Shown one piece after another: positions 8,309-40,255 of a stretch of DNA of 64,000 bases. The position numbers and the translations under genes are program-made. How positions within the stretch are numbered: the stretch's first letter is position 1; every line of letters begins with the position of its first letter. Source of the DNA: Acutalibacteraceae bacterium (lineage in GTDB: Bacteria; Bacillota; Clostridia; Oscillospirales; CAG-272); contig CAVESF010000008.1 of NCBI GenBank assembly GCA_963618495.1, forward strand, positions 2,749-66,748, written 5' to 3'. Under the pieces are notes generated by a model that saw nothing but the letters and a program-made list of their open reading frames with translations, was not told the origin of the DNA and did no database searches.

Positions 8309-8352
8309 AAAAATGTCCTTTCTGCAAGGGTTTTAAGTTTTATACAAAAGTC

Positions 8353-8814: not shown

Positions 8815-9229
8815 TTAAAAGCAACTCCGTTATTCCCGCTTTTATCGCGTCATAGCACTGCGCCATCGCTTCATCGCCCGAAAAAAGCGGCATATTTATC
8901 TCTCCGAGAGAAACCACCTTGTCGGCACATTCTGGATATGCTTCCCTTATCACGCGGGCATAATCCTCACGCATGGCGACGACGATATCCGCCTCCTCCA
9001 TGAGATAGCCCGAAAGCTGACGGGCGCGGTGAAGCCTGTGCAGATTTCCCGCAAGTCTGCGGTCGAGGATGCGGATGGCATAAGGCTCCATTGTGTCGCC
9101 GACAAAGGCATTCAACCCTGCCGACGAGGCGGCATATCGGTCGCCCGCCATATCCATCAGTATGTACTCCGCCATGGCGGAGCGGCATGTATTTGCCACG
9201 CAGACAAAAAGAACCTTTTTTCTGCTCAT
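8801..9229 (-). CDS. Low-molecular-weight phosphatase (LMW-PTP fold), YwlE-like candidate protein-arginine phosphatase
   Basis: 142 aa. The P-loop is VLFVCVANTCRSAMAE (CX5R-S) with Thr immediately before the second Cys. Confidence 0.7.
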   Translation of the reverse strand: MSRKKVLFVCVANTCRSAMAEYILMDMAGDRYAASSAGLNAFVGDTMEPYAIRILDRRLAGNLHRLHRARQLSGYLMEEADIVVAMREDYARVIREAYPECADKVVSLGEINMPLFSGDEAMAQCYDAIKAGITELLLSEKD

Positions 9230-10080
9230 TATTCTGTTTCTTCTTCGTCGTGCACGCGGCAGGGCGTTGCCTCAACGGCATCTGCCACGGGAGCTATAGC
9301 GTCACCCTCGAAAAGCTCGATTGCGCCCTTGTCGCAAAGGTTTGCGAGCGCGGGGTCTATCGGCATCCTGGAGAGGACTGGAATATCATATTCCTTTGCC
9401 ACCTCTTCGACATGGCTCTCTCCGAAGATATGAAGCTCCTTGCCGCAATCGGGACACTTTACATAGCTCATATTTTCCACTATGCCGATTATCGGTATAT
9501 TCATAAGCTGTGCCATGCGGACAGCCTTGCCTACTATCATGCTGACAAGCTCCTGCGGGCTTGTGACAATGATGATTCCGTCCAGCGGGAGCGACTGGAA
9601 AACCGTGAGCGGAACATCGCCTGTGCCTGGAGGGCAGTCAACTACCATATAGTCAAGACTTCCCCATACGGCGTCCGTCCAGAACTGCTTTACGGTACCG
9701 GCGATGACGGGACCTCTCCATACAACGGGAGCGGAAGTGTCCTCAAGGAGCAGATTCAGACTGATGACCTCGATGCCCGTCTTTGTGGTCATGGGCATGA
9801 TGCCGCCGAGCGGTGCCGCCTCGCAGTTACCCTTGAGTCCGAAAGCTTTCGGAATGGAGGGACCTGTGATATCGGCATCGAGTATACCTACGGAAAGCTC
9901 TCTGCGACGAAGCTCTGTCGCAAGCAGACTGCTGACCATCGATTTGCCTACGCCGCCCTTGCCGGAAACGACGCCTATAAGCTTGCCTACGCGGCTGTAC
10001 TGATTTACCGCCTCAAACTGCGGCTTTCTCGAGCCGCAGGAAGCAGAGCATGTTGAACAATCATGTGTGCATTCTGACAT
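9229..10080 (-). CDS. Mrp/NBP35/ApbC-family Fe-S cluster carrier ATPase
   Basis: 283 aa. Deviant Walker A GKGGVGKS, conserved CPDCG motif, and a Cys-rich N-terminus (CTHDCSTCSASC). Confidence 0.85.
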   Translation of the reverse strand: MSECTHDCSTCSASCGSRKPQFEAVNQYSRVGKLIGVVSGKGGVGKSMVSSLLATELRRRELSVGILDADITGPSIPKAFGLKGNCEAAPLGGIMPMTTKTGIEVISLNLLLEDTSAPVVWRGPVIAGTVKQFWTDAVWGSLDYMVVDCPPGTGDVPLTVFQSLPLDGIIIVTSPQELVSMIVGKAVRMAQLMNIPIIGIVENMSYVKCPDCGKELHIFGESHVEEVAKEYDIPVLSRMPIDPALANLCDKGAIELFEGDAIAPVADAVEATPCRVHDEEETE

Positions 10081-10111
10081 TTTTTATATTCCTCTTTTTT
10101 CTCTTATTTTA

Positions 10112-11569
10112 TCAAAGTATCGTGAATCCGAAGAAGTCCTTCGTATTATTATAACATATATCGCAGACCATCTGCGCGAGCCGCTCTATATCGAGCGGAT
10201 ATTCGCCGCGCTCCACATAGCCGCCGATAACGGAGCAAAATATTCTCCTGAAATATTCATGGCGCGTATATGAAAGGAAGCTGCGCGAATCTGTCAGCAT
10301 ACCGATAAACTTGCCGAAAGCGGAAAGATTTGCGAGATTTTCCATCTGGGCACGCATACCGGCGATATTATCATTGAACCACCATGCGCTTCCGTGCTGC
10401 ATTTTCGGCATGCACCAGTCAAAGCCCTCGGATTCCTCGCTCGTGTAGTTGAATGTGCCGGCAAGCGTTGCAAGCGCGGCATTGTCGGTCGGATTGAGCG
10501 AATAGAGTACCGTTTTCGGAAGTGCGCCCTCGGTATTGAGTGCGTCAAGCATGGCGGCAAGGTCTGCAATGCAGTTTTTGCCGTGAATCATATCGTAGCC
10601 CATATCGGCACCGAGTGCGTTTGTCATTGCGCTGTTTGCACGGCGGAGCGTGCCGAAATGAATCTGCATTACCCAGCCGTTTCTTACATATTCCTTGCCG
10701 AAGAAGCGGATGAGCGCGCTCTTGTATATCGTAGCCATCTCTTCGCCGACGCTCTCGCCCGCAAGCGCGCGCTTGAGCACGACATCGGCGATGGCGACAG
10801 CCTGACCCGCTGTTTTGGTACTGTCGAATGTGACATAATTATCGAAACCGTGGTCAGCCGTGCGGCAGCCGAGCGCCTTGAAAAGTGCGATTCTCTTAGA
10901 TAGGACATCGCAGAGCGAAACAAAATCCTTTATTTCGTCCCCGGCAACCTCGGAAAGGTGCTTTATATAATTTGCGAAATCGGGCGCTGTAATATTCATG
11001 CATTTGTCGGGGCGGAACGCGGGAAGCACCTGAGTTTCAAAGCTCGTATCACTGCGCAGAGCGATGTGATATTCGAGATTGTCCGCGGGGTCGTCCGTCG
11101 TGCAGATAAGCTTGACATTCGATTTTTTTATGATGCCGCGCGCACTCATGGAAGGCTCCTCGAGCTTGTCACAGGTGAGTTGCCATACCTCATCGCAAGT
11201 ATCGGGCGAAAGCACGCCGTAATAGCCGAAATAGCGCTGAAGCTCGAGATGAGTCCAGTGGTAGAGCGGATTGCCGATGAGATTCGGCATTGCGCTCGCA
11301 TACGCACGGAATTTATCATAGTCGGAGGCGTCGCCCGTTATCAGACGTTCTGCGATACCGCAGGCACGCATTGCTCTCCATTTATAGTGGTCGCCGTAGA
11401 GCCAGAGCTGCGTGATATTTTCATATCTCTTGTCCTCGGCTATCTCCTTTGGGCTGACATGACAATGGTAGTCGATTATCGGCATCTGCTCGGCATAGTT
11501 ATGATAAAGCAGCTGAGCCACATCCGAATCAAGCAGAAAGTTTTCATCCATAAATTCTTTGATTTTCAT
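10112..11569 (-). CDS. uxaC: Glucuronate isomerase
   Basis: Family-typical N-terminus [37 protein letters not shown]. The start is set at ATG 11567-11569, preceded by AAGGAGAGGG. The track ORF adds 20 unsupported codons. Confidence 0.9.
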
Positions 11570-11732
11570 TTTTCCCTCTCCTTTTATTCCCGAAATAGAA
11601 AAAACAGAGCTTTTTCTTAAATTATACACTATACTTCATTTAATTGCAAGATTTTATCCGATTTTCCCGCAGAAATTTTCCGCAAAAAGCTCCCATGCGC
11701 ACAAAAAAACAAAAAAATATCGGATTTTCCTC

Positions 11733-27228: not shown

Positions 27229-27413
27229 GTCCCTTTTTTTCATATCAGTTATATATATATCGATATATGTAGGAACTATACGAAAAAAGGTGAAAAAACG
27301 CCCTTTTTTGCAGGGTAAAATTTCCCCGCCGCGGCATGATTTTCGCAATTTCCGTGATATTGCATCTGTACGGCAGAGACGGATTTCGGCGAGAGAAAAA
27401 GTGAATATAATAA

Positions 27414-27447
27414 AATGCAGGCAATCCGCGAGAGGATTGCCTGCATT
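27414..27447 (-). terminator. Terminator of the 7-gene ABC/surface-protein operon
   Basis: Perfect 14-bp stem AATGCAGGCAATCC/GGATTGCCTGCATT with a 6-nt loop. On the minus strand it is followed by TTTATTATATT. Confidence 0.8.
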
Positions 27448-27552
27448 CATTAAAACCGATATTACTGAAAAGTTTAAGTTTTCATAAATGTCTTTACCCA
27501 ATAAAAACATTTACCTCTTCACTTTTTCGGTCTGCACTTTTTTAGCAGCTGA

Positions 27553-28605
27553 TTACATGCCGCCAAAGCCGGAATGTTCAATACCCTGTACCAGATATCT
27601 CTGACAGAAGAGATACATTATCATCAGCGGAGCAATAACCATAAGACCTGCCGTATTTCTTACAGCAACCTTATAGGTATCGACGCTTGCACCTGCAAGA
27701 GAGCTGAGCGTATCGAGCGTTGGAGGCATTGTCTGCCAGAACTTCGAGCTTGTCAGAAGTATCGTGTCAGACGAGGGCATGAATGTGCTTGTGTAGAAAA
27801 TATCCGTCCACTGCCATGAGAACGAAAGTATGAATACCGTGATAAGCATCGGTACAGATACGGGAAGTATGATGTGGAAGAATGTCTTTATCGGACCGTA
27901 ACCGTCAACATACGAGGATTCCTCAAGCTCATCGGGAATGCCGCGATAGAACTGCCTCATTATGTAGATAAAGAGTCCGTTCTTGAAAGCAAGACCTGTG
28001 AGTGAAAGAAGAATTATCGGCACGAATGTATTGAGCAGACCCGTGCTCATTCCGAGAGCATCATAAAGTCCCGTTTTGTTGAAGAGACCGAAGATATCAA
28101 AGAAAGCAAACTTCTGAACGAGAGAAGAAGCTATCATCTGCGGAGGTACAATCATCGTGAAGATAACGAGCAGGAAGAGCGCGTTATTGCCTTTGAATTT
28201 GAACTTGGCAAATCCATAGCCGATGAAAGCACAGATAAACATCTGAAGTCCGCCGCAAACAAGCGATATCAGCGTTGTATTGAGCAGTGCTCTGAAATAA
28301 TGGTTTTCCGTGATAAGATATTTGTAGATATCCAGCGTAGGATATTTCGGAATCATCTTTACATCGGACTGAATAAAGTCTGTCGGGCTCATGAACGAAG
28401 AAGAAATCTTCGAGAAGAACGGGAACAGAATGATATAAGAAAGACCGAGAAGAAGCACAAATCTGAAAACAGCCACGAGAATCTTCTTATAGAAGAAGGC
28501 ATTCAGATATTTTGCTTTCAGACGCTGTGCGAGAGGAGTTCTGTCAAACTCTACGCGAATTTTATTCTTGGTTTCTTTTTTAACCTTTGGCATATTGTTA
28601 TCCAT
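27553..28605 (-). CDS. Carbohydrate ABC transporter permease (MalG-like, CUT1), second pair
   Basis: 350 aa, 6 TM, with the EAA loop ESSYVDGYGPIKTFFHIILP. The N-terminal cytoplasmic tail is basic. Confidence 0.85.
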   Translation of the reverse strand: MDNNMPKVKKETKNKIRVEFDRTPLAQRLKAKYLNAFFYKKILVAVFRFVLLLGLSYIILFPFFSKISSSFMSPTDFIQSDVKMIPKYPTLDIYKYLITENHYFRALLNTTLISLVCGGLQMFICAFIGYGFAKFKFKGNNALFLLVIFTMIVPPQMIASSLVQKFAFFDIFGLFNKTGLYDALGMSTGLLNTFVPIILLSLTGLAFKNGLFIYIMRQFYRGIPDELEESSYVDGYGPIKTFFHIILPVSVPMLITVFILSFSWQWTDIFYTSTFMPSSDTILLTSSKFWQTMPPTLDTLSSLAGASVDTYKVAVRNTAGLMVIAPLMIMYLFCQRYLVQGIEHSGFGGM

Positions 28606-28622
28606 TTATATCCCCTCCCCTC

Positions 28623-29636
28623 TCAGTCATTTCTGCGCTGGTAGAACACGAATGTTCTGCATATACCGAATACTATGACAAGCATGAGTATTACGAGCGC
28701 GAAGTAAATCCAGCAAGCTGCCGACTGAACAGTGTCAACGGATGTCATCGAGCCGCCGCTCTTATTCAGAATGAAGCTCATAACCTTGTTTGATTCCGCC
28801 GTGAACGAGTCGATAACCGTATAAACAGAGTTTGCGAGAATCATCGGGCTTATCATCGGGAATGTTATCTTCCAGAAAGTTTCCCATGCCGTTGCGCCCT
28901 CCATCTGGCACGATTCGTAAATCGAGGGAGAGATGGACTGAAGTCCCGAGAGGAATATCAGCATCTGAACGCCGGAGCGGTTTACTATATTGTAAATATC
29001 ATTTACAAGCTGTACGACTACATCCACAAACTTTGATGCTATACCGAGGTTTTGGAAAGCCGCCGTCAGATCCATCGCGGAAACGAAGCTTGTTCCGCCG
29101 TCTACCATACCCATGTCAAGTCCTTCAAGACTGCTCATGCTTGTGATGATGGCGTTGCCGTTGTCTATCTTTGCGATAATGCCCGCGCCGATAACGACAG
29201 GGATAAAGAATATCGCACGGAATGCCGCTCTGCCGACCATCTTCTGGTTCAGAAGAACCGCTACGAAGAGCGAGAGAAGAATGATAGCCACTATCTCTAC
29301 GACCTGGTCAAAGAAGCTGGTGAAGAGAAATTCCTTGAAAAGGATACCCTGCTCGGCGTCAACCGTGAGGTTGAGCGCCGCTTTGTAGTTTGCAAGTCCT
29401 ACCCACTGGAGCTGGTATCCGAAGCCCTCGAGAGCCGAGAGCTGTCTGTAGTCTGCCACGCTGTAGCAAAGAGATTCCCATATGGCCGATGCATAGATGA
29501 ATACGAGACCTATAACAAACGGTGCTACGAATATCCAGCCTACTCTCGACTTTTTCTCTGTCAGAGAGGCATGAGGCGTGAAAAAGTTTTTAAGCTTTGT
29601 TCCGAAGCTTGTTTTTTCTGTTGTCTTGTTGCTCAT
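28623..29636 (-). CDS. Sugar ABC transporter permease (MalF-like, CUT1), second pair
   Basis: 337 aa with the EAA loop ESCQMEGATAWETFWKITFP. A large extracytoplasmic loop lies between TM3 and TM4. Confidence 0.85.
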   Translation of the reverse strand: MSNKTTEKTSFGTKLKNFFTPHASLTEKKSRVGWIFVAPFVIGLVFIYASAIWESLCYSVADYRQLSALEGFGYQLQWVGLANYKAALNLTVDAEQGILFKEFLFTSFFDQVVEIVAIILLSLFVAVLLNQKMVGRAAFRAIFFIPVVIGAGIIAKIDNGNAIITSMSSLEGLDMGMVDGGTSFVSAMDLTAAFQNLGIASKFVDVVVQLVNDIYNIVNRSGVQMLIFLSGLQSISPSIYESCQMEGATAWETFWKITFPMISPMILANSVYTVIDSFTAESNKVMSFILNKSGGSMTSVDTVQSAACWIYFALVILMLVIVFGICRTFVFYQRRND

Positions 29637-29654
29637 TTATATTCACCTCTCCTT

Positions 29655-32600
29655 TCAGTCAATTTTGATATAGCTTCTTGCGGCTATAAGCTCATATCTC
29701 GTATCGGAAACCTTGACGATTACACTGCCTGTAGTGTAGTTTACAAACATTGTCTTACCGTCCGCCATGGTCACTCTTACGATGTCTGTGCTGTTGGTAG
29801 CCATTGCGGAAAGCGCAGACTCGATGTTTTCCTTGGCACGTGCTATCTGCGAGCTTGAACCGGAAGCAAGTGCCTTTTCAAGCGCTTCGTAAAGCTTGCT
29901 GAAGCTTGCGGCTCCCTTTGTTGTAGGTGTCTGCGCCGTAACAACCTCAGAGCTCTTCGGTGCAAAGGTCTTGCCATCTGCGTCTTTCGCATTGATAAAG
30001 CTGTTAGCCTCGAGAACTATAGCCTTGCCGTCCACATAAACAGTTACATCAAATGAGTTGTAGTTGATATAGAATGTTGTTTCGCCCTTGCCGGATGTGT
30101 AGGTTACGCTTACCGCATTTCCCACATTGTTTACATCGATAAGCTGCTTTACGCTTGTGAGATGCTTCTCGGCGGCCTCGAAAGCGGTTTTCTTTGCCGC
30201 TTCGTCTGCAAGCGCGGTGCCTGCCTGTCTGCCGTCGGCAATAAGCTTATCCGTATACTCGACAGCCTCATAATATGCTGTCTTTTTCTCCTCGTAATCC
30301 CTCTCTGCCGAAGTGAGCTGGTCAAAGAGAACATATGCGTCATCTGCGGAGAGTCTGAATGATGTCAGATAGCTGTGACCTGTTATCACGGCATTCTGGA
30401 GGTTCTTCATTTCATCGTTTACCATGTTGTAATACTTGACAACATCGGAATACCATGTCGTGAAGTCTACGGAATAGTAATTGGAAACATCGGTGTAAGT
30501 ATTCTTGAGCTCGTTTGTATTCTGATATGAAAGGATGAAATAGAGTGCGGAGCCGTTTTCTATCGACTTGAGTATTTCATACTTCACATCGCCCGCCATA
30601 TTGACGGCTGTGCCGGCAAAGTTCTTATATCCGTGGAGCACCATGCCTGTGAAAGGAACGGACTGGGAGGATATAGCGAAGCGGCTGTTGTCCATCGGAA
30701 CCTCGATGAGGTCTGTGATGTACGGGAGCGTATATGCGTTGCCGCTGGAAGCGATAACCTTGTTATTGTCCTGCTTTATCTTGTTGAGGAGGAAGATTGT
30801 ATATTCCTTGGAATCCTCACGGGTAAGAGGTCTGTCCATATTGAAGTCGGAGTTGAGATCCGTACCGAGTGTGAGAACGGAGATACTGCCTACCTCATAC
30901 TTCTGATATTTCTTTGCAAACTTCTCATAGAGCGTCATGAAAGCGGAGGGAGAGACGATGTTTGCGTTACCGAATTTCGTCATTATCTGGTAAACGGGGT
31001 CATAGCTGCGCTTTGTGACATATCTGCCGCCCATTGTCTGAGCCGCGTGCTTCTTGTAGGAGAAGCCGCTTCCCGAGAGGACAGCGTTTGCAAAGTCGAA
31101 GTTCGGGAATATGTCTATTCCGTTTTCGGAAGCGAATGAAAGGAGCTTTGAGAGTCCTTTCTTGCCGCCTACCTCCTTATTCCACTTTACATTTGTCGGA
31201 TATGTCGGATATTCTATATTGCCGTTTGCAAATCCGGTAAGAATGAATTTCTGATTTTTGATTCCGCCGTCGGAAAGCATACCGCTCATCGTGATAATAT
31301 CATCAAATGTCGTCAGCGGAATCGTTTTCACAACGGGGATGGAGAGGAATGTGGAATCTATATCAAGTGTACCGAAGCTCTGGATGTAGAGCGGAACGCC
31401 CGAGGATGTTTCCTCTGCCGTGAGTCTCGATATCGTGCCTACGCGCTCGAGATAATCTCTGTATGCCATAGCCATGCCGATATAGGAGGGCTCATATGAT
31501 GTTTCGCCGCTCTGCTTTGCGAGATTGGGGTCGGAAAGCAGGATGTAGCGTATTGCATAGTCGCCGGTATACTTTGTATCCATGCTCTTTGAGATGGAGG
31601 AAGCATTACCGAGCGAGCTGCCGAGCGAAACCGTATCGGTCTGCTTTGCGGAGAAGCTTACATAAACCGTGTTATATTCGCTCTCTGCAGGAGATGCATA
31701 GTTGACCCATGCCATATCTCCGAGGCTGGCTGTGATATAAGCGAAAGATTCGCCGTTCTCGATTATGCCGAAGTAACCTCTCTTGTAGCTTACCGTTTCG
31801 GATTTTGCGGGAGCGTTGCTTCGCTCTGTCGTTGTCGTGATGCTGTAGTCCTCTGTCAGACCGAATACGGGAAGTCTTGTAACCTCCTGATTTGCGCTGG
31901 TGGAGGAAAGATTGTCATAACCGAAGTCCGTGCCGTAAACGGGTGTACCCTGAATACCTTTCTTTATAGAGCCGTCCGCATTGTAGTAATTGAGGAGCGT
32001 ACCGCTTCCGTCGGGTATGAAGATATAGCCGCCGGTCTTTGTCTTGGTTCCGCTGTTCTTTACGGAGCTGCAGCCGAAATAAGGCAGGGGTGTTATCGAT
32101 TCGAGAGTGTAGTTTGTTTCGTTGTATCTTACGCTCTTTGCGGGGATGGACGCGCGGAAGCCGTACTCATCGAAAGTATATTCGATAGCGAGACGGAAGA
32201 GCGCGGGCTCTTTTTCGTTTCCTTCGTATCCTGTCAGCTCATGGTCGTATTCCAGTTCCTCGTATGTGTACTCGGGACAATACTTTCTTATCAGAGCTTC
32301 TATCTGCTTGAGTATCGCGTTTCTGTCAACCGCGAGAGTGTAGATTTTCATTTCCCTGTTGTTTGCAAGGCAGGGATATGTCTTTCTCCAGCCGTCCACA
32401 AGGCTTGCATTAAGTTCGTCTGTCTGGTCCTTGTAGGAATAGTGCGATGTCGTAAGGTTGTCGTAAATGAATTTCTCGTCCTTCGTCATCTCGGATGCCT
32501 TGGAGTCGAGCACGCTGAGAATCTTTTCCTCAAAGCGGCTTGCCTCTATCCATCTCGGAAGGAGTCGCTTGGATTCAACGGTACCGAGAGCATACTCCAC

Positions 32601-33044
32601 TCTTATACCGTTTGAAAGCTGGGTATATGATATCTGATCGCCGAGCAGAGCCGCATGCTCATAGCTGGACATATAGTAGCTCGTATTTGAGTTGTTGTCC
32701 GTATATCTGAGCATTATCTGGCTCATCAGAGAATATCTTATCTTCTCTGCGTTTGAGGGCATTGTGTAGTTTGCCGCGATATCATAAGGGTTTGAAAAAG
32801 TGTATTCGCCGGTTTTCTTGTCTTTGATGGCAAATTCTCCGGAAAGCTCATCGAAATACATCTGATAGCCGTACTCATCGCTGTCGTAAACAAGCTTCAT
32901 TGTATCGACCTTTGCTTTTTCCGATTCATATACCGTCTTGTAATAATCATCTATCACAAGGTCAGCCGCGAAAACAGGCACAGAGAGCGCTGTTATGAGC
33001 ATGATAACAGCAAGAAGAGCCGATATAAACTTTATTTTTTTCAT
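29655..33044 (-). CDS. Large secreted or anchored protein of unknown function (resembles proteins annotated DUF5696, not verifiable here)
   Basis: 1129 aa with signal peptide MKKIKFISALLAVIMLITALSVPVFA. No catalytic motif was recognised by eye. The C-terminus carries two related ~40-aa beta modules separated by a helical linker. Confidence 0.5.
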   Translation of the reverse strand: MKKIKFISALLAVIMLITALSVPVFAADLVIDDYYKTVYESEKAKVDTMKLVYDSDEYGYQMYFDELSGEFAIKDKKTGEYTFSNPYDIAANYTMPSNAEKIRYSLMSQIMLRYTDNNSNTSYYMSSYEHAALLGDQISYTQLSNGIRVEYALGTVESKRLLPRWIEASRFEEKILSVLDSKASEMTKDEKFIYDNLTTSHYSYKDQTDELNASLVDGWRKTYPCLANNREMKIYTLAVDRNAILKQIEALIRKYCPEYTYEELEYDHELTGYEGNEKEPALFRLAIEYTFDEYGFRASIPAKSVRYNETNYTLESITPLPYFGCSSVKNSGTKTKTGGYIFIPDGSGTLLNYYNADGSIKKGIQGTPVYGTDFGYDNLSSTSANQEVTRLPVFGLTEDYSITTTTERSNAPAKSETVSYKRGYFGIIENGESFAYITASLGDMAWVNYASPAESEYNTVYVSFSAKQTDTVSLGSSLGNASSISKSMDTKYTGDYAIRYILLSDPNLAKQSGETSYEPSYIGMAMAYRDYLERVGTISRLTAEETSSGVPLYIQSFGTLDIDSTFLSIPVVKTIPLTTFDDIITMSGMLSDGGIKNQKFILTGFANGNIEYPTYPTNVKWNKEVGGKKGLSKLLSFASENGIDIFPNFDFANAVLSGSGFSYKKHAAQTMGGRYVTKRSYDPVYQIMTKFGNANIVSPSAFMTLYEKFAKKYQKYEVGSISVLTLGTDLNSDFNMDRPLTREDSKEYTIFLLNKIKQDNNKVIASSGNAYTLPYITDLIEVPMDNSRFAISSQSVPFTGMVLHGYKNFAGTAVNMAGDVKYEILKSIENGSALYFILSYQNTNELKNTYTDVSNYYSVDFTTWYSDVVKYYNMVNDEMKNLQNAVITGHSYLTSFRLSADDAYVLFDQLTSAERDYEEKKTAYYEAVEYTDKLIADGRQAGTALADEAAKKTAFEAAEKHLTSVKQLIDVNNVGNAVSVTYTSGKGETTFYINYNSFDVTVYVDGKAIVLEANSFINAKDADGKTFAPKSSEVVTAQTPTTKGAASFSKLYEALEKALASGSSSQIARAKENIESALSAMATNSTDIVRVTMADGKTMFVNYTTGSVIVKVSDTRYELIAARSYIKID

Positions 33045-33062
33045 TTCGTTCTCCCTCCTTGC

Positions 33063-35207
33063 TTAGTTGGAACGGTAGGAAATCTCTGTAATGATATCCG
33101 TTACAAAGCTTACCATTCGCTGAATAAGGTTCGTGAAAAGCATTATCAGGAAGACAATAAACATCATCGCCACGATAGTGAATATCGTCATACCTATATT
33201 TACGCCCATGGAATATCCGTGGGTTGTCATTATACCGAAGAAGAGAAGCATGCCCGTCCATACAAATGCGATACCTGTGAAGAGAGAGATGAATGTCTTC
33301 TCATCGAGGGTTGCAAAGTTGGAAACGATGGTTACGGGGATGAAGAACACGGGGATGGGCATGAGTGAATAGCTGGACGCTATGAAAATGTCCTTGAGTG
33401 TACCTTCGCCGTCGAAAAGTGTTGTCAGGCACCAGTTTGCTACGCACCAGAGGAGGAGCGGAGCAACTACTGTGCTGATGCCGCCGAAGATAGAGCCTGT
33501 AGCGTTGCCGCCGCTGCCGGAATAGAGATAACCGGAGCCGACATTGTTATAAGCAACGGAAAGTGCGGCGAGAATTACGATGAAGATAGAGGCGCGAACC
33601 GAGCCGCGTTTTTCATGCTTCAGATCCCAGTAGCCGTCGAAAGGATGCATCATCACATAGAATGCGTAAAGCACTTCTTCCTTGAAAGTTCTCTTTCCGC
33701 TCTTGGCTGTGGCGTTCTTGTTTACCTTGGCTGCATAGCCGAGTCCCTTTGCAAGGAGGAAGAGCGCGGCAACAATGATGGCAACGACAACGAGGAAGTA
33801 TTTGCCTATCCATTCTCTGCGCAGAGCCTTGTAGGAATCGGAGTAGTTTGCCGTAGAATTTGCTGTCTTGAAAAACTTCATTGCCTCTTCGTAATCGCCC
33901 TGCTGATGGAGGTTTCTGCCCACGCCGACATAAGCTGCATCGAAGTTGTTGTTTCTCTTCAGGATTTCTCTCCAGTTTTCGAGAGCCGAAGAATAGATTC
34001 TCAGTCTGTTGTAGTAGAGAGCGTTGTCAATGACATCGCCGTACTCCGTTCTCTTGTAGATGGTAATCGAGCTTGCCTCGGAGTCTACAACATAGAGGTC
34101 GGAGCCGAAGTATGCGAGAGCCGCGCCCTTCTTGAGGTTACCAAGCTGTGCGCCCTTGTCGCCGAAAGCGAAGAGCAGGTTGCCCTCGGAATCGTATGTG
34201 TAAATCTTGGAGCGCTTTTCATCGAGTATCGACCACATTCCGTTCGGACCGATAGCGACATCCACTATCGAGGAAGGACCTGTGATAACATCACTGCTGC
34301 TACTCTTTGTCGAGCTGTGATCAAAGCTGATTTCACCGGCAGGAATGAAGAAGCCGTTTCGCGTCGTGATATCGTCGCCCGCGGAGTTCATTCTCTTTAC
34401 GGGAGCGTAGTCCGCATTATTGCTTTCGATAGCGCTGATAAGGTCTGCATCATCCATACTGTTTGATGTAACCCAGATATAGCCCTCGTCGTCGAGCGCG
34501 AGGTTGTTGTACTCAGGAGAGATATAGGAAATGGAAACCGTATTCGGGAAGAGCATACGGCGGATACGCATTGCGAGCGGCACGGAAACTTTCTGTGTAC
34601 CTACAAAGGTCTGGAAGTTGCCGTCCTCATCAAGTGCGAAAACGCCGGAATATGTTGCCGCGGAAACGACATACATTCTGCCCGAGTCGGATACGCCTAT
34701 CGCAACAGGTGTAAACACCGTATCTTCGCCCATGACATCCGCTGTCGGCGCGCCTATGGTGCGGACGAAGTTGCCGAGCAGGTCAAATACAACTATTCTT
34801 GCGTTCTGCTTATCGCAGACATAGATGTACTCATCGTTTACGAATGTACCCCTCGGCTCTGAAAGGCTGTCGGGAACCCCGTGCTCGTTATTGAATGTGG
34901 AAATTTCAAATCTGAATTTGAATTCGCTGTTGCAGACAACGATTCTGTTGTTGCCTGTATCGGAGAGGTATATATTCATATCCTTATCAATGAATATATC
35001 CTTCGGCTCCTTGAGCTCTGTATCAATTCCTATTTCATAGGAGGAAACCACTCTGTCCGGAACATATACATCAGGCGAAATGCGCGCCTGACCGGCTATC
35101 GAGTAAGTATATGTCGAATAAGGGGAAGCCGCCGCGAACATAGGGACTATCGAACCGAGAAGGAGCATCAGCATAAGTATGCAAAGAATTCTTGTTATTT
35201 TCTTCAT
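33063..35207 (-). CDS. Signal peptide + NHL-repeat beta-propeller + TPR-like segment + C-terminal Yip1-like multi-TM domain
   Basis: 714 aa. About six NHL-like blades are visible (IYLSDTGNNRIVV, IYVCDKQNARIVVFD, MYVVSAAT, IWVTSNS, IYTYDSEGNLLFAFG, LYVVDSEASSITIY). One TM helix lies near residue 470, followed by about 5 TM helices. Confidence 0.6.
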   Translation of the reverse strand: MKKITRILCILMLMLLLGSIVPMFAAASPYSTYTYSIAGQARISPDVYVPDRVVSSYEIGIDTELKEPKDIFIDKDMNIYLSDTGNNRIVVCNSEFKFRFEISTFNNEHGVPDSLSEPRGTFVNDEYIYVCDKQNARIVVFDLLGNFVRTIGAPTADVMGEDTVFTPVAIGVSDSGRMYVVSAATYSGVFALDEDGNFQTFVGTQKVSVPLAMRIRRMLFPNTVSISYISPEYNNLALDDEGYIWVTSNSMDDADLISAIESNNADYAPVKRMNSAGDDITTRNGFFIPAGEISFDHSSTKSSSSDVITGPSSIVDVAIGPNGMWSILDEKRSKIYTYDSEGNLLFAFGDKGAQLGNLKKGAALAYFGSDLYVVDSEASSITIYKRTEYGDVIDNALYYNRLRIYSSALENWREILKRNNNFDAAYVGVGRNLHQQGDYEEAMKFFKTANSTANYSDSYKALRREWIGKYFLVVVAIIVAALFLLAKGLGYAAKVNKNATAKSGKRTFKEEVLYAFYVMMHPFDGYWDLKHEKRGSVRASIFIVILAALSVAYNNVGSGYLYSGSGGNATGSIFGGISTVVAPLLLWCVANWCLTTLFDGEGTLKDIFIASSYSLMPIPVFFIPVTIVSNFATLDEKTFISLFTGIAFVWTGMLLFFGIMTTHGYSMGVNIGMTIFTIVAMMFIVFLIMLFTNLIQRMVSFVTDIITEISYRSN

Positions 35208-35226
35208 TATTATATATACCTCCTGC

Positions 35227-36111
35227 TCAGTCTTTCATACCGGAAGTAGACATCGTCTCGATAATGTTGCTCTGCGTGATAACGAATACCGCCACAGGAA
35301 CTATCATCATTACGACTGCGGAAGCCATGCCGACGCCGGCACGGGCGATACCGCTGGATACTATCTGAGAGATAGCATAGTTGAATGTCTTGTACTGTTC
35401 GCTCATTATATAAATGGAAGAACCTGTCTGCCACAGACCCTGGAAAGAGTAAACTATCAGAGTCAGCCATGCAGGCTTAACCATCGGCATTGCTATAGTC
35501 CAGTATGTGCGGATTTCGGATGCGCCGTCCAGTCTCGCGGATTCGAGAACCGTATCCGGAACGGAGGACTCCATAAACTGCATCATAAGGAACATACCGA
35601 GCGTACTGCCGCATGCGGGGATTATGATTGCCCAGTATGTATCGACGAGGTGAAGTGCGCTCATCGTCATGAAATTGACAACCGAGCCGACCGTCGCATG
35701 GAACATGAGCGCGAGTCTTACCATTTTCTGCAGAGCTTTTCTGCCGGGAAACTTTATCTTGGAAACGGCATATGCGGCAAGAGAACCGCACACAAGGTTA
35801 CCGAAAGTACCGCCGACGGAGATGAACACCGTATTGAATATGTATCTGGAAAAAGGAACCCACGAGTCTGTCATCGCTTTGAACATATCGGAAAAGTTTG
35901 AAAGAGTCGGGTTTGCGACATAGAATCTCGGGGGATACACCCAGAGCTCGTCAAGCGGCTTGAGCGACTGGATGATAGCGTAGTACATAGGGATAAACAT
36001 GAAGAGTCCGAAAAGCACGAGGAAGAAGGTTATACCCGCGTCGCCTCCGACGGAACGGTTAAGGACAACTTTATGATTTCTGGTTCTTAATTTTGTAACT
36101 TTTCTCGCCAT
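35227..36111 (-). CDS. Carbohydrate ABC transporter permease (MalG-like, CUT1), first pair
   Basis: 294 aa with the EAA loop ESARLDGASEIRTYWTIAMP. Confidence 0.88.
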   Translation of the reverse strand: MARKVTKLRTRNHKVVLNRSVGGDAGITFFLVLFGLFMFIPMYYAIIQSLKPLDELWVYPPRFYVANPTLSNFSDMFKAMTDSWVPFSRYIFNTVFISVGGTFGNLVCGSLAAYAVSKIKFPGRKALQKMVRLALMFHATVGSVVNFMTMSALHLVDTYWAIIIPACGSTLGMFLMMQFMESSVPDTVLESARLDGASEIRTYWTIAMPMVKPAWLTLIVYSFQGLWQTGSSIYIMSEQYKTFNYAISQIVSSGIARAGVGMASAVVMMIVPVAVFVITQSNIIETMSTSGMKD

Positions 36112-36112
36112 A

Positions 36113-37075
36113 TTACTGTCCCACCTTCGAAAGTATTTTCTTTACCAGCATGTTTGCGCCTATCATGATAAAGAAGAGTATTGTTGCTATAGCCGAAGCA
36201 TAGCCGACCTCAAATCGCTGACCGCCGTAGTCCTCGAGATGATGCATTATCGTATGAGCCGCGTAGTTTACGCTGGGGAAGCCCGCGAGCGTTGTAACTA
36301 TCGCGCCGAAACCAAATGACGATGTAATGGACATGATGGCACCGAAAAGAAGCTGCGGCTTCATATTCGGGAGCGTTATGTACCAGAGTTCCTGCCAACG
36401 GTTTCGTACACCGTCCACGGCACCCGCCTCAAACTGGTCCTTGCTGACCGTCTGCAGACCGCCGATGAACGAAAGGAACGAAACGCCGAGCGATGTCCAG
36501 AGGGCAACGACTATACAGAGCGGCATGACATATTTTGCATTCTGGAACCACTGTATAGGCTCGGTGATAACCTCCAGCTTAAGGAGGATGTAGTTTGCAT
36601 AGCCGTATGAGTCACCGCTGAAGAATACCATCCATACGGTGTAGATACCGCCCGAGATAGACGGTGCATAGAAGATAAGCGTTACAAACGACCTTATCTT
36701 CGGAGGAAGCTCGTTTATAAACCATGCGACGAGGAACGAGAGCAGGTATGAAACAGGTCCCGTTACAGCCGCGAAAATAAGCGTGTTCTGAACAGCCGTG
36801 AGGAATACATCGTCGTCCACGAAAAGACGGACATAGTTCTCAAAGAATACGAACTGCGGCGCTTCTATAAGGTTGAATATTGTAAAGCTGAAGAAAAGCG
36901 AGAGGATAACCGGACCTATCGTGAACAGTATGAACACGAAGTAGAAAGGAAAGCACATGATATACGCTGCGTAATTGCGCTTCATTTCTTTCAGTGTCCA
37001 CTGGAACATCGACATTTCCTTGCGGGAAACCGGCTTTTTGCCCATCTGCTTCTCAGCAACAGTTTCTGTAGACAT
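36113..37075 (-). CDS. Sugar ABC transporter permease (MalF-like, CUT1), first pair
   Basis: 320 aa with the EAA loop EAGAVDGVRNRWQELWYITLP. Confidence 0.88.
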   Translation of the reverse strand: MSTETVAEKQMGKKPVSRKEMSMFQWTLKEMKRNYAAYIMCFPFYFVFILFTIGPVILSLFFSFTIFNLIEAPQFVFFENYVRLFVDDDVFLTAVQNTLIFAAVTGPVSYLLSFLVAWFINELPPKIRSFVTLIFYAPSISGGIYTVWMVFFSGDSYGYANYILLKLEVITEPIQWFQNAKYVMPLCIVVALWTSLGVSFLSFIGGLQTVSKDQFEAGAVDGVRNRWQELWYITLPNMKPQLLFGAIMSITSSFGFGAIVTTLAGFPSVNYAAHTIMHHLEDYGGQRFEVGYASAIATILFFIMIGANMLVKKILSKVGQ

Positions 37076-37104
37076 TTGATTTTCTCCTTTATCAAGTATT
37101 TCTT

Positions 37105-37137
37105 CTCCGGAAAGCGGAAGTCTGCCGCTTTCCGGAG
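37105..37137 (-). other. Intercistronic 13-bp stem-loop between the binding-protein gene and the permease genes
   Basis: CTCCGGAAAGCGG / CCGCTTTCCGGAG. There is no T-tract afterwards, so it fits an mRNA-stabilising or partial-termination hairpin as seen in other ABC operons. Confidence 0.5.
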
Positions 37138-37144
37138 GTGTTGA

Positions 37145-40100
37145 TTAACCGAACAGGTCGTAATTTGAGGGAACGAAGAAGTTGCGCTTCAGCTCTGCTC
37201 TCTTTCTTTCCATCTCGCGGTTTATCGTATCGACATAACCGAGGAGCTCATCGCTCGGGTTTGCGCCGTTGTTATAAACCTCAAGGTAAGCAAAGTTTAC
37301 ATAGCGGGAGATGATGTAGCTTCCGGGCATTTCAGGCATACACTTGAGCACCTTGAACTGCTCGCTGAGCACCTTGGATTCGCTTGCCGACCATGACATC
37401 TCGGAGAATGCCTCGTAGTTTGCCGTAGCGTACTTGCCGGCAGGACCGAGAAGCGCTACCAGCTCGTTTGCGTATGCGCTCTGGATTTCCGTGCGCATCC
37501 ACCACTCCATGAATTTGAAGGCTGTGTTCTTCTTCTCTTCCGCATCTCTCATTACGACCATCGCCGTAACGGAGCCTATCGTTGTCTTGTCAACAGTGCC
37601 GTCTTCGCGGACAGTACCGGGGATATTTGTGAAGCCCCAGAGTCCGTTCAGCTCTGTTGCGAATATTGTGAACTGATTGTAGAATGTGATATAGTCAGCT
37701 ATGATTATCGGAATTTCGCCCGTTCTGAAACGGTTTGCCGCATCATAGGTCTTGGGAAATTTCTTGTGTGTGTAAAGCTCGCACATTTCGGTGAATGCAT
37801 CGAGCGCAACATCCGTATCATAAGATATCGTCGTGCCGCCGTTTGTATACAGCGTGCCGCCCTTCTGATAAAGGAAGATATTGAACATTTCGTTGTAGCC
37901 CATGCCGACTTCATAGTTGTTGGAAATGAGCGTTTCGGAAATGGTTTCGAATTCATCCCATGTTTCAGGTGCCTTCGTTATGCCGAGCTCCGCGAGGATG
38001 TCCTTTCTGTAGAACATGACGCTGAAGCTCTGTGTAAGCGGTATACCATAAACTGCCTTTTCGCCGTCGGGACTGTCGAGAGCGACAGTCAGAGGCGTCC
38101 ATGCGCTATCGTGGAATCTTCCTTTCAGCGTTTGGAAATCGTCGCAGTCATAGAGGTTTACAACCGCGCCGCGGACAGCATAGTTGATAACGGTAGAGGA
38201 AGGCTCCTCCATCATTATATCGGGACCTACGCCTGCGAACACCGCGGGAAGCAGTGCGCCTGCCGTAACAACTTTCATATTTACAGATATATTCGGCTCC
38301 ACCGATGAGAAGTTGTTGCTTACAAGGTCACGGATGAGCTGTGCGCGCTCACGGGAGATTGTGGTCCATACGGTAAGCTCCGTCATACCCTCGCCGACTT
38401 CAACTGCGCCGAACGAAGAGTTGTCGCGGAAGAAGCTCCATACGAAAGCGGAAACCTCAAAGCCGAAGTTTTCAAAGAAGTTGCCCTTCGCCTTGTATTC
38501 CTTCTTATCGAGTGTTGCCTCAGCGGGAGCGACTACGAGATAGTCCATTTTCAGAGTCTGCGATGTGACTGTATTGAGCCATGTGCCGAGGTTACCGATA
38601 TCGGTCTTGAGAGCAGTGAAGTTCTTGGCTATCTGACGCTCGCTGTTCTTGGACATCGTCTCGAGACGGCGTGCAATCTTTTCGAGTGTAGCCTGGTTCG
38701 AGCTGCCGCCGCCGGTAATCTGTTCAAAGCGTTTTGCGATATCAAAAAGCTCTGTGGAAAGCTCTCTCATTCTCTTTATTTCCGAAGGAATACGGGAATA
38801 GAACTTATAATCCTGATAAGAGTCCGGAGAAGGACCTGTTATCGAAAGTATCTTCAGATATATATTGTTTATCTCGGTAAGAGCTCTGCGTACCTCGGAT
38901 ATGATTCCGCCGAGCTCGCCGAGTGTAACCTCGAGAGAAAATGTGTGCGTTCCTTTTTCAAGATAAAAGTCAAAGGCTTCGCCGTCAACGCCGAGCGCAG
39001 AGAACTGCCAGTCGGAATTATAGATGAAGTTGACATTGTTTGCCTCATAAAACGGAATCTCGCCGTCTATGCGCAGGCGTCTCGACACGTAAAGACCCTG
39101 AACCACATTCTGAAGGAATCTGGAGTAGATTTTGTAGTATCCGTCCTCGGGAACAGTCACCGTCCACTCTATCCACTGACCCATGGTCGACCAGTTGGAG
39201 CCGCCGATTACATTGCAGAGAATGTAGCTTGCGTGCTGAGGGCTGTTTATTGAAGAAGAACGGTCGTTGTCCGGATAAAGCGTCTTGTCCGATGTGGCGC
39301 TCGCGTTTTCAGCCTCAATCTTTATCGGCGTGGCGGAAGTAGCGTTGTTCGGCTTTGAGTCGTTTAGCTTGCGGTACTCCTCGTATGTAAGCTCGTCTGT
39401 AACGGCTGTGAGGCGAATCTCATCCAGCACGACAGGCTCTCTCTGACCGGTAAGCGAAATCGTATTTTCGCCCGCCTTGAGGTAGAACCAGAAGTTGCCG
39501 TTGTTGTAGCCGGTCGGGTCGCTTACATAGTAGGTGCGCCATTCGGGCGCTTCATACTTCTGCGGACGAGCATCGTTGCCGCTTGCATCCTTATCAAAGA
39601 CGATATTGCCGTTTTCATCGTACTTGTATTCGTCCTTCCAGATTTTTGTCATCAGAAGGTTTCTTACCTCGGTGAAAGGAACTTCGCCGTTGATTCTGAG
39701 CGTTCTTTCTATGTTGCTCGCTTTCGCCTTTATCGGGTAGTAATCCCACTCGATGGCATAAAGTCCGTCCTCAGGCACGGTTACTTTGTACTCGACGGTA
39801 CCGATATCCGGCGTCTGGAGAACATCCTTTCTGCCGTCAAGCTCATCGAGCTTTTCAAAAGGCAGAGCGGCGTCCTTGTCGGTCATTCCCGAGGGATACG
39901 TGAAGCTTGTATATCCGGAAGCCTTTATTACGATGGGCTCGCCGGTATATCTCTTCATGCCGGAATATCTTGCGTAGTATGTGCTCCATGTGATGTCGTT
40001 AAGCTGCTCGAGCGCTTCCGCAAAGCTGTCCGACTCTGAACTTCCCGATGAAGTCGTGGTCGTATCAGCTGCAAAAAGCGTCGTCGCGCCGCATATCGTC

Positions 40101-40153
40101 ATGCACAGTGCAAGCGCAAAAGCAAGCAATCTTGTGAATTTCGATTTTTCCAT
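37145..40153 (-). CDS. Giant extracellular solute-binding protein: signal peptide, two CBM-like beta-sandwich modules, helical linker and a family-1 SBP domain
   Basis: The start is ATG 40151-40153 (MEKSKFTRLLAFALALCMTICGATTLFA) after AGGAGGATCC. Duplicated modules contain VTVPEDGLYAIEW...LRINGEVPF and VTVPEDGYYKIYS...LRIDGEIPF. The C-terminal ~430 aa look like a CUT1 binding protein. Confidence 0.7.
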   Translation of the reverse strand: MEKSKFTRLLAFALALCMTICGATTLFAADTTTTSSGSSESDSFAEALEQLNDITWSTYYARYSGMKRYTGEPIVIKASGYTSFTYPSGMTDKDAALPFEKLDELDGRKDVLQTPDIGTVEYKVTVPEDGLYAIEWDYYPIKAKASNIERTLRINGEVPFTEVRNLLMTKIWKDEYKYDENGNIVFDKDASGNDARPQKYEAPEWRTYYVSDPTGYNNGNFWFYLKAGENTISLTGQREPVVLDEIRLTAVTDELTYEEYRKLNDSKPNNATSATPIKIEAENASATSDKTLYPDNDRSSSINSPQHASYILCNVIGGSNWSTMGQWIEWTVTVPEDGYYKIYSRFLQNVVQGLYVSRRLRIDGEIPFYEANNVNFIYNSDWQFSALGVDGEAFDFYLEKGTHTFSLEVTLGELGGIISEVRRALTEINNIYLKILSITGPSPDSYQDYKFYSRIPSEIKRMRELSTELFDIAKRFEQITGGGSSNQATLEKIARRLETMSKNSERQIAKNFTALKTDIGNLGTWLNTVTSQTLKMDYLVVAPAEATLDKKEYKAKGNFFENFGFEVSAFVWSFFRDNSSFGAVEVGEGMTELTVWTTISRERAQLIRDLVSNNFSSVEPNISVNMKVVTAGALLPAVFAGVGPDIMMEEPSSTVINYAVRGAVVNLYDCDDFQTLKGRFHDSAWTPLTVALDSPDGEKAVYGIPLTQSFSVMFYRKDILAELGITKAPETWDEFETISETLISNNYEVGMGYNEMFNIFLYQKGGTLYTNGGTTISYDTDVALDAFTEMCELYTHKKFPKTYDAANRFRTGEIPIIIADYITFYNQFTIFATELNGLWGFTNIPGTVREDGTVDKTTIGSVTAMVVMRDAEEKKNTAFKFMEWWMRTEIQSAYANELVALLGPAGKYATANYEAFSEMSWSASESKVLSEQFKVLKCMPEMPGSYIISRYVNFAYLEVYNNGANPSDELLGYVDTINREMERKRAELKRNFFVPSNYDLFG

Positions 40154-40226
40154 TTGGATCCTCCTAAAAAGATGGGGTATATCACTTTCGTGACGCACAT
40201 ATTTTCTCTCTGAAATATGCCTTAAT

Positions 40227-40255
40227 ATAATATCATATAAGCGCCGCAAAGTCAA
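40227..40255 (-). promoter_or_regulatory. SigA-type promoter of the ABC/surface-protein operon
   Basis: On the minus strand: TTGACT (40250-40255), 17-nt spacer, TATTAT (40227-40232), about 70 nt upstream of the ATG. Confidence 0.55.

Follow-up and report, generated by a model that had tools for sequence, protein, structure and literature searches.

The 64,000-nucleotide stretch of contig CAVESF010000008.1 analysed here (positions 2,749 to 66,748 of the forward strand; Acutalibacteraceae bacterium, assembly GCA_963618495.1), hereafter termed the window, carries on its minus strand a seven-gene operon that encodes a giant solute-binding protein (SBP1), two pairs of sugar-type ATP-binding cassette (ABC) permeases (P1F/P1G and P2F/P2G), an NHL/TPR/Yip1 membrane protein and an 1129-aa DUF5696 protein. 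The explanation that we favour, and consider moderately probable, is that these genes specify two CUT1 importers with common accessory proteins, in which SBP1 feeds the first permease pair and orphan solute-binding proteins (SBPs) of a second type, termed SBP2, feed the second. Importer 1 would consist of a membrane-tethered SBP1, which would present carbohydrate-binding module (CBM)-like modules on a helical stalk, together with P1F and P1G. Importer 2 would consist of P2F and P2G, and its binding proteins would be SBP2 lipoproteins, for which this genome has eight dispersed orphan genes. The single MalK/MsmK-type ATPase of the genome would drive both importers, and the NHL/TPR/Yip1 and DUF5696 proteins would form a surface scaffold that holds or hands over captured glycan chains and does not cut them. 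The docking of the binding proteins on the permeases, co-transcription, the accessory roles and the substrate are what we infer, unlike the gene content, the gene order, the fold, the residue replacements and the orphan expansion.

The seven-gene cassette and dispersed SBP2-type binding proteins

The open reading frame (ORF) check of the window returned seven head-to-tail ORFs on the minus strand between 27553 and 40153, all at the positions given beforehand. In operon order, they encode SBP1 (37145..40153; 1002 aa from the ATG; Pfam SBP_bac_1/SBP_bac_8), the MalF/UgpA-like permease P1F (36113..37075; 320 aa) and the MalG/UgpE-like permease P1G (35227..36111; 294 aa) of pair 1, the NHL/TPR/Yip1 membrane protein (33063..35207; 714 aa; Pfam NHL, TPR and Yip1), the DUF5696 protein (29655..33044; 1129 aa; Pfam DUF5696, E 2.7e-131), and the MalF/UgpA-like permease P2F (28623..29636; 337 aa) and the MalG-like permease P2G (27553..28605; 350 aa) of pair 2, with intergenic gaps of 69, 1, 19, 18, 18 and 17 nt. 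P1F, P1G and P2F were assigned by Pfam BPD_transp_1 and by NCBIfam, and P2G by BPD_transp_1 and by the NCBIfam MalG model (3.6e-19). A sigma-70-type promoter-like site lies ahead of the operon at 40227..40255 (minus strand; TTGACT, a 17-nt spacer and TATTAT, with a TG before the −10 element; 10/12 matches), an AGGAGG stands on the same strand 7 nt ahead of the SBP1 ATG at 40153, and a terminator-like hairpin of 15 pairs followed by a T-rich tail (27413..27448, minus strand) marks the operon end. An earlier note on this DNA had proposed a seven-gene operon between a promoter-like and a terminator-like site, with two MalF/MalG-like permease pairs and with no ATPase, regulator or recognisable glycoside hydrolase (GH). 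The ORFs, the gaps of 1–69 nt and both sites agree with that layout, Pfam and NCBIfam recovered the two permease pairs, and their scans found no ABC ATPase, regulator or GH domain in the seven operon proteins.

The short gaps and the conserved order suggest that the seven genes are co-transcribed. Within the 69-nt gap, right behind the SBP1 stop codon, lies an intercistronic stem-loop with no U-tract (37104..37138, minus strand), for which a folding energy of −24.9 kcal/mol and a z-score of −6.4 were obtained and which none of 200 shuffled sequences equalled in stability. A stem-loop without a U-tract after an SBP gene is the usual way to keep the SBP message above the permease message, and the one observed here is probably an mRNA 3′-end stabiliser that raises SBP1 expression over that of the downstream genes. 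The operon lies among housekeeping genes: mdh/fumC follow it, mnmA and an iscS-like gene for a class-V aminotransferase lie upstream, and no GH gene directly flanks it. The genome that holds the window is of gut Clostridia, 1.9 Mb in size, and near Candidatus Apopatosoma intestinale (94% protein identity).

The same arrangement was found far outside this genome. Of 400 evenly sampled Clostridia genomes, 115 (about a quarter) gave a match above cut-off to PF18952, the Pfam family of DUF5696, and 20 kb were fetched around 20 of these matches from many families. The order SBP1-P1F-P1G-NHL/TPR/Yip1-DUF5696-P2F-P2G was present in all 20 fetched loci, and every cassette-length DUF5696 match inspected sits in that gene order. 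Furthermore, three metagenome loci (L035–L037), whose DUF5696 proteins are 46–50% identical to that of the window, carry the same seven genes in the same order behind mnmA, with different genes downstream. The metagenomes are rich in full-length homologues of the 1129-aa protein, and a search of contigs with this single protein returned only three near-identical loci. Cassette-type DUF5696 proteins were also found in cultured Paenibacillus, Thermobacillus and Mahella. The earlier note had suggested co-occurrence statistics; the identical gene order in 20 diverse and three closer loci indicates that the cassette is conserved as a unit and is no peculiarity of this genome.

The components of the cassette are conserved to different degrees. 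Over the 20 loci, mean identity to the window proteins was 53% for P1F, the most conserved component, 49% for P1G, ~38% for P2F/P2G, 36% for SBP1, 33% for the Yip1 protein and 30% for DUF5696, the least conserved one. The NHL/TPR/Yip1 protein is split into two genes, one for the NHL/TPR part and one for the Yip1 part, in 11 of the 20 loci. The P1 and P2 permeases are only distant kin (E about 1e-6; P2F versus P1F, E 4e-06), which argues against a recent duplication. In one locus, from a Mahella australiensis-like genome (L040, genome G040), the DUF5696 gene itself seems to be split: positions 6332-6784 encode a 150-aa N-terminal fragment, a 498-aa ORF follows on the opposite strand (7954-9450, minus strand), and the remaining 727 aa are encoded at 9546-11729; the interruption may be an insertion element. 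In the full-text literature, no paper was found on DUF5696, on PF18952, or on Yip1 in combination with ABC-transporter, solute-binding-protein or glycoside-hydrolase terms, and the cassette appears to be undescribed.

Within the operon, no binding-protein gene accompanies the second permease pair, as the earlier note had pointed out. In related loci, the cassette is flanked by a conventional lipoprotein of ~460–510 aa, here called SBP2, whose gene lies behind P2G in 9 of the 20 loci (directly in seven, one gene further in two), and an SBP2 homologue lies just upstream of SBP1 in two more genomes (G080 and G316). SBP_bac_1 was confirmed by Pfam in all five SBP2 proteins tested. No SBP2 gene flanks the window operon, where the terminator and then the mdh operon lie behind P2G and mnmA lies ahead of SBP1. 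The rest of the genome carries eight dispersed paralogous SBP2-type lipoproteins of ~540 aa, all of which have a lipobox Cys and a linker rich in Ser and Thr. Three of them are encoded in tandem at C1:111861-117078, two at C23:17912-21268, and one each at C13:31766-33400, C34:13510-15120 and C7:46933-48546. The alignment of these orphans matched the SBP2 alignment with an hhalign probability of 99.3% (E 4e-20, 388 columns) and gave no match to SBP1, and no permease gene was found within 44 kb on the contig for any of the eight. A single-sequence search of 34 other genomes with an orphan lipoprotein returned nothing; the family is visible outside this genome only by profile. With a combined SBP2 and orphan profile (E ≤ 1e-10), matches were obtained in 19 of 22 cassette-positive genomes versus 1 of 20 cassette-negative ones.

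The copy number of this family was compared with that of the permeases in 21 close relatives, SBP2 copies being counted at E ≤ 1e-20 and BPD_transp_1 genes of all kinds being taken as permeases. Four same-genus genomes carry 7–9 SBP2-type copies and 17–18 BPD_transp_1 genes, whereas G411 carries 20 copies and 11 such genes, G417 carries 31 and 15, and G406 carries at least 73 copies, with 8 BPD_transp_1 genes found. As the copies far outnumber the permease genes in these relatives, the SBP2 proteins appear to be largely orphan receptors that share very few membrane units. Adjacency in other lineages suggests that P2F/P2G is the pair on which SBP2 proteins would dock. The claim of the earlier note that the second pair lacks an SBP of its own therefore stands for the operon and not beyond it, since SBP2 genes flank 11 of the 20 related loci and eight orphans are present in the genome; these orphans also come close to what that note had itself named as contradicting its view, namely an SBP encoded elsewhere. 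Three sigma-70 fusion proteins were observed beside orphan SBP2 genes (C13:33450-35018; C13:35182-36756, minus strand; C34:16046-17674). They are ~520–540 aa long, with an N-terminal region 2 plus region 4 and a long uncharacterised C-terminal extension, and may regulate the adjoining SBP2 genes.

An EAA-type cytoplasmic loop was read from the translation of each of the four permeases (P1F, FEAGAVDGV...LPNMKP; P1G, LESARLDGAS...; P2F, YESCQMEGAT...FPMISP; P2G, EESSYVDGYG...), so that coupling to an ABC ATPase is expected of each. The genome encodes a single MalK/OB_MalK-type ATPase, which lies outside the operon at C35:7437-8609 (ABC_tran 5.6e-31, OB_MalK 1.5e-14). Of the features of a CUT1 system, MalF-like and MalG-like BPD_transp_1 pairs with EAA loops and a MalK-type ATPase elsewhere in the genome are present, and an SBP_bac_1-type SBP stands beside pair 1 (SBP1), with none in the operon for pair 2. 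Together with the conserved order, this ATPase agrees with the earlier proposal that the operon is one dedicated unit of CUT1-type import parts whose ATPase is encoded elsewhere. Only three sugar-type permease pairs were found in the genome, namely P1, P2 and one on contig C18. As the cassette holds two of the three, it is probably the main entry route for carbohydrates in this organism, with the orphan binding-protein family serving it. The third CUT1 pair (C18:965-4422) is followed by a conventional SBP_bac_1/SBP_bac_8 gene encoding 534 aa with a hydrophobic C-terminal end, possibly a transmembrane (TM) anchor replacing the lipid anchor.

The giant binding protein combines a clear SBP domain with less clearly assigned N-terminal modules. 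Its AlphaFold2 (AF2) model (pLDDT 83.7, pTM 0.79) comprises an N-terminal hydrophobic helix, a disordered Ser/Thr-rich linker, two beta-sandwich modules (~74–249 and ~277–410), a four-helix stalk (414–530) and an SBP domain (~534–990), within which Pfam placed SBP_bac_1/SBP_bac_8 at residues 607–898. The best Foldseek matches align this domain with the oligosaccharide SBPs 9xfu, 5f7v, 5ysf and 3uor (TM-score, TMt, 0.72–0.82), and the ligands of these best structural matches are cycloisomalto-oligosaccharide, cycloalternan, sophoro-oligosaccharide and maltodextrin. The best sequence match by phmmer was Lin1841 (5ysb; E 6.8e-16, residues 602–983). Because the Foldseek search of the whole model was dominated by the SBP domain, it gave no structural assignment for the beta-sandwich modules. 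By sequence, the N-terminal half of the window protein matched Golvesin_C at E 0.0023, and among 19 SBP1 family members the N-terminal modules matched Golvesin_C in 10, CBM_35 in 4 and CBM_6 in 1. The label CBM-like is thus reasonable for the family and weakly so for the window copy, and of the CBM-fused SBP described in the earlier note the SBP part is clear and the CBM part is better supported across the family than in the window. No lipobox was found in SBP1; the N-terminal helix and the disordered Ser/Thr-rich linker of the model suggest that the protein is tethered to the membrane through an uncleaved signal anchor.

The DUF5696 protein and its catalytic positions

The window DUF5696 protein matched PF18952 with 439.5 bits, against a gathering cut-off of 25.6, over residues 262–894. 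In its AF2 model (pLDDT 81.8, pTM 0.79), an N-terminal signal/anchor helix is followed by a beta-sandwich and a (beta/alpha)8 barrel (~282–890) and by C-terminal helical hairpins, and the C-terminal region holds two repeated small beta modules (977–1018 and 1084–1128). The Foldseek search with this model, a check that the earlier note had suggested, revealed a GH129/GH101-like fold: the best match was ZgGH129 (5opq; E 5.5e-25, TMt 0.68), followed by NagBb (5wzp; E 1e-18) and then by GH101, GH36 and GH31 structures. A sequence search of solved structures gave no meaningful match for the window protein, either as a single sequence or as a 41-sequence profile, and in Pfam only DUF5696 was matched, with no match to Glyco_hydro_101. 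Residues ~900–1129 (29655-30700) form an extension that the window clade has and shorter cassette forms lack. In this extension, a small beta module stands behind each of two long helical hairpins, and both modules carry the motif (A)DGKT-F-(V/I)NY, which resembles the C-terminal strand of NagBb and of short DUF5696 forms.

Four stand-alone short DUF5696 proteins of 563–608 aa, encoded outside any ABC cassette, link the cassette forms to characterised enzymes (L071:6501-8192, beside a GH38 gene; L072:6091-7869; L073:6589-8388, minus strand; L074:6537-8363). Glyco_hydro_101 was matched above cut-off in two of the four, and one of these two, the only short form searched, matched NagBb 5wzn with E 2.8e-14 over 400 residues (phmmer). 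By their sequences, the short forms are probably real, unclassified GH129-like glycosidases. A bridge alignment was built from 27 cassette forms, the four short forms and NagBb 228–628, its register being set by the common motifs GGxKG, (L/M)TR(E/R)(D/E) and VP(F/L)...H. Asp435 is one of the two catalytic residues of NagBb and is conserved in ZGAL_3152 as Asp486 (PMC5698469). Its position is occupied by Asp in all four short forms, by Thr725 in the window protein and, among the 41 sequences of the window clade, by Thr in 21, Ser in 19 and Ala in 1. The second catalytic carboxylate of NagBb, which we take to be Glu478, corresponds to Glu in all four short forms, to Ser767 in the window protein and to Gly, Ser or Ala (36, 4 and 1 of 41) in the window clade; this position is non-acidic in all 27 cassette forms and is followed by a conserved G-N-x-Y. 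E829 is the only barrel carboxylate conserved across the whole cassette family; in the secondary structure of the model it lies at a helix end before a strand and is therefore taken to be on the non-catalytic face. With Thr725 and Ser767 at the positions of Asp435 and Glu478, the window DUF5696 protein is probably a pseudo-glycosidase, and the alignments and the model indicate that cassette-type DUF5696 is most likely a glycosidase-derived pseudoenzyme with a conserved pocket. D733 or D729 had been considered as nucleophile from the family alignment, and this candidate was dropped when the bridge alignment put Asp435 of NagBb on Thr725.

It is fairly unlikely, in our judgement, that DUF5696 is instead an active extracellular glycosidase or transglycosylase that uses non-canonical catalytic residues and trims oligosaccharides before import. 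Such an activity would fit the GH129/GH101/GH36/GH31-like fold, which was assigned with high confidence, the invariant carboxylates of the window clade (D345, D373, D733, D819 and E829, with D729 in 33 of 41) and the Asp that is kept at the nucleophile position in a third of the cassette forms. It would also fit ZGAL_3152, whose catalytic residues differ from those of NagBb within the GH129-like fold (PMC5698469). However, the one residue that NagBb and ZGAL_3152 have in common was replaced in every window-clade sequence, none of the 27 cassette forms is acidic at the Glu478 position, and the only family-wide barrel carboxylate is E829, read as lying on the non-catalytic face. The GH genes beside the cassette also differ widely in specificity, which points to a role that does not depend on the substrate. 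The processing step that the earlier note had included in its scheme is accordingly doubtful, DUF5696 having a glycosidase fold without equivalents of the GH129 catalytic Asp and Glu.

The earlier note had placed the 1129-aa protein in the role of the missing SBP, and a version of this idea, in which DUF5696, descended from an inactive glycosidase, itself delivers the substrate to P2F/P2G, so that no classical SBP is needed, is in our view unlikely. The DUF5696 gene always lies immediately upstream of P2F and frequently overlaps it (L038, L044–L047), and the barrel keeps a set of conserved residues (GG626-627, R742, N769, Y771, P797-F798 and N815) without the catalytic ones, as would be expected of a binding pseudoenzyme. 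Moreover, five cassette-positive genomes gave no SBP2 match, and TM3 and TM4 of P2F are separated by ~60 aa, by eye an extracytoplasmic loop, which could dock a partner if it faces outward. Against these points stand the ordinary SBP gene that adjoins 11 of the 20 related cassettes, the eight orphan SBP2 homologues without a permease of their own, and the DUF5696 model, which does not have the two-lobe fold of an SBP; nor are we aware of any TIM-barrel protein that gates a type I ABC importer. Given the SBP2 orphans, a substitute SBP is no longer needed, and the idea is kept as a rival to two importers that share accessory proteins.

Accessory proteins and substrate

The 714-aa protein encoded between P1G and DUF5696 is composed, in order, of a signal peptide, an NHL-type beta-propeller, a TPR pair, a TM helix and a C-terminal Yip1 multi-TM domain. 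The Yip1 match (PF04893) is nearly full-length (E 3.5e-14; 53.5 bits versus a cut-off of 28.6; profile positions 2–172 of 173, residues 517–687), and the N-terminal part was matched by Pfam NHL (7.4e-07) and TPR and by the NHL region of NCBIfam ScyF (4.4e-18). From this domain order, the propeller and the TPRs should be extracellular and anchored by the TM helix and the Yip1 domain. The scaffold hypothesis follows from the fact that the NHL propeller and the TPR are both protein-interaction modules. With DUF5696, this protein accounts for the two or more components without a described function that the earlier note had counted.

The same parts could also be arranged as a generic two-channel engine, in which many SBP2 receptors, each with its own glycan fragment, would deliver to P2F/P2G through a docking platform made of DUF5696 and the NHL/TPR/Yip1 protein, and SBP1 would deliver to P1; we regard this as distinctly unlikely. 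If true, it would be a Gram-positive counterpart of the "many receptors, one transporter" systems, in which a pseudo-glycosidase would be the adaptor.

The substrate was approached from the neighbours of related cassettes and from the enzymes of the genome. Related cassettes adjoin GH9, GH31 and GH26+CBM35 genes and a gene for a BNR/Sortilin-type protein (Pfam), as well as genes judged by eye to be GH10-, GH43-, GH3- and pectinesterase-like, and with such varied GH neighbours the module is apparently substrate-agnostic. With the seeds tried, the genome yielded three GH13, one GH31, one GH3 and one GH38-like enzyme, and no homologue of GH9, GH10, GH26, GH43, GH74 or carbohydrate esterase family 8 (CE8). 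This GH set was found to be too small, and naming the substrate from the genome's own enzymes was dropped. A glycan substrate is plausible, given the likeness of the SBP1 domain to oligosaccharide SBPs and the GH genes beside related cassettes, and gluco-oligosaccharides can be named as a weak guess. Of the machine for capture, processing and import that the earlier note had envisaged, glycan import by a dedicated system with uncharacterised parts thus persists, processing is doubtful, and the operon is one instance of a widespread cassette. The genome also encodes seven dockerin-bearing proteins, including a 1173-aa BspA-type leucine-rich repeat (LRR) protein (C7:50814-54335), and the organism may build cohesin–dockerin surface assemblies.

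It is very unlikely that the module senses or recycles envelope glycan, in wall or capsule turnover or in signalling, and does not serve nutrient foraging: the mnmA/iscS and mdh/fumC flanks, which have no GH gene nearby, with the mnmA neighbourhood kept in relatives whose proteins are 46–50% identical, the failure of the seeds tried to find GH9, GH10, GH26, GH43, GH74 or CE8 homologues, and the three sigma-70 fusion proteins could be read in this way, but in other lineages the cassette lies inside clear polysaccharide-utilisation loci (GH9, GH31, GH26+CBM35), every part needed for import is present, and dozens of binding-protein copies fit broad nutrient scavenging better than the recycling of a single polymer.

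Several points weigh against two CUT1 importers served by SBP1, the SBP2 orphans and a non-cutting scaffold. The catalytic mapping depends on an alignment of ~11% identity that is bridged by four sequences, and the second NagBb carboxylate is presumably Glu478. The window clade keeps D729, D733 and D819, which might conceivably serve in catalysis instead, and GH129-like enzymes can shift the acid/base residue, as the difference between ZGAL_3152 and NagBb illustrates (PMC5698469). For the binding proteins, the orphans could dock on P1 or on the C18 pair instead. Five cassette-positive genomes gave no SBP2 match (G177, G193, G004, G412 and G415), two cassette-negative relatives did give SBP2 matches (G401 and G410), and the co-occurrence counts ignore phylogeny and a general sugar-using lifestyle. 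Finally, co-transcription of the seven genes is suggested by the short gaps and the conserved order, and SBP1 has no lipobox, so that its tethering would depend on the modelled helix and linker.

Comparison with known systems

If two importers with a common scaffold are indeed encoded, a major oligosaccharide uptake route in gut and fibre-degrading Firmicutes would depend on parts absent from textbook ABC importers, namely a giant SBP with a stalk, a propeller anchored by Yip1 and a pseudo-glycosidase. What the window adds is a cassette tied to a strongly expanded orphan binding-protein family, and a residue-level case for DUF5696 as a pseudo-glycosidase.

The closest known systems are the CUT1 importers (TC 3.A.1.1), such as MalEFGK2 of E. 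coli and the Firmicute MsmEFG with MsmK/MsmX, with which the cassette shares MalF/MalG-like pairs, EAA loops, SBP_bac_1 and an ATPase encoded elsewhere. In contrast to these, the cassette has two permease pairs in one operon, a 1002-aa SBP with beta-sandwich modules and a helical stalk, the NHL/TPR/Yip1 and DUF5696 genes between its permease pairs, and the SBPs of pair 2 outside the operon in eight copies. The SBP1 domain itself resembles Lin1841 of Listeria innocua (5ysb, sophoro-oligosaccharide), 9xfu and 5f7v (TMt 0.72–0.79), all of which bind multi-unit gluco-oligosaccharides, with identities of only ~19–22%, which are too low for a transfer of specificity. Unlike SBP1, these three proteins are ~390–440 aa long, have no N-terminal modules and are encoded in loci with one SBP and one permease pair.

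DUF5696 shares the beta-sandwich plus (beta/alpha)8 fold and the motifs of GH129 (NagBb, 5wzn/5wzp; ZgGH129/ZGAL_3152, 5opq) and GH101. NagBb is an alpha-N-acetylgalactosaminidase, and GH101 enzymes are endo-alpha-N-acetylgalactosaminidases. The window protein differs from both families in carrying Thr725 and Ser767 for Asp435 and Glu478, in giving no direct sequence match and in its ABC cassette context. To our knowledge, the sole bacterial precedent for a Yip1 accessory protein is YknW of Bacillus subtilis, a Yip1-domain membrane protein that works with the YknWXYZ ABC exporter. This system has a MacB-type permease, YknW is not known to have an NHL propeller or TPRs, and the likeness is a lead only.

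The orphan receptors recall the "Bug" receptors of the tripartite tricarboxylate transporter (TTT) family in Bordetella, an expansion of orphan binding proteins on few membrane units. Similarly, SBP2 genes outnumber transporter units: this genome has eight copies, and relatives with 8–15 permease genes of all kinds have 20 to at least 73. The cassette differs from the Bug systems in being of the ABC CUT1 type and not TTT, in belonging to another phylum, and in offering a candidate common permease within a fixed cassette that also encodes two accessory proteins. Compared with the literature, what is new about this ABC sugar importer is its dual-channel layout and the presence of two accessory proteins without precedent.

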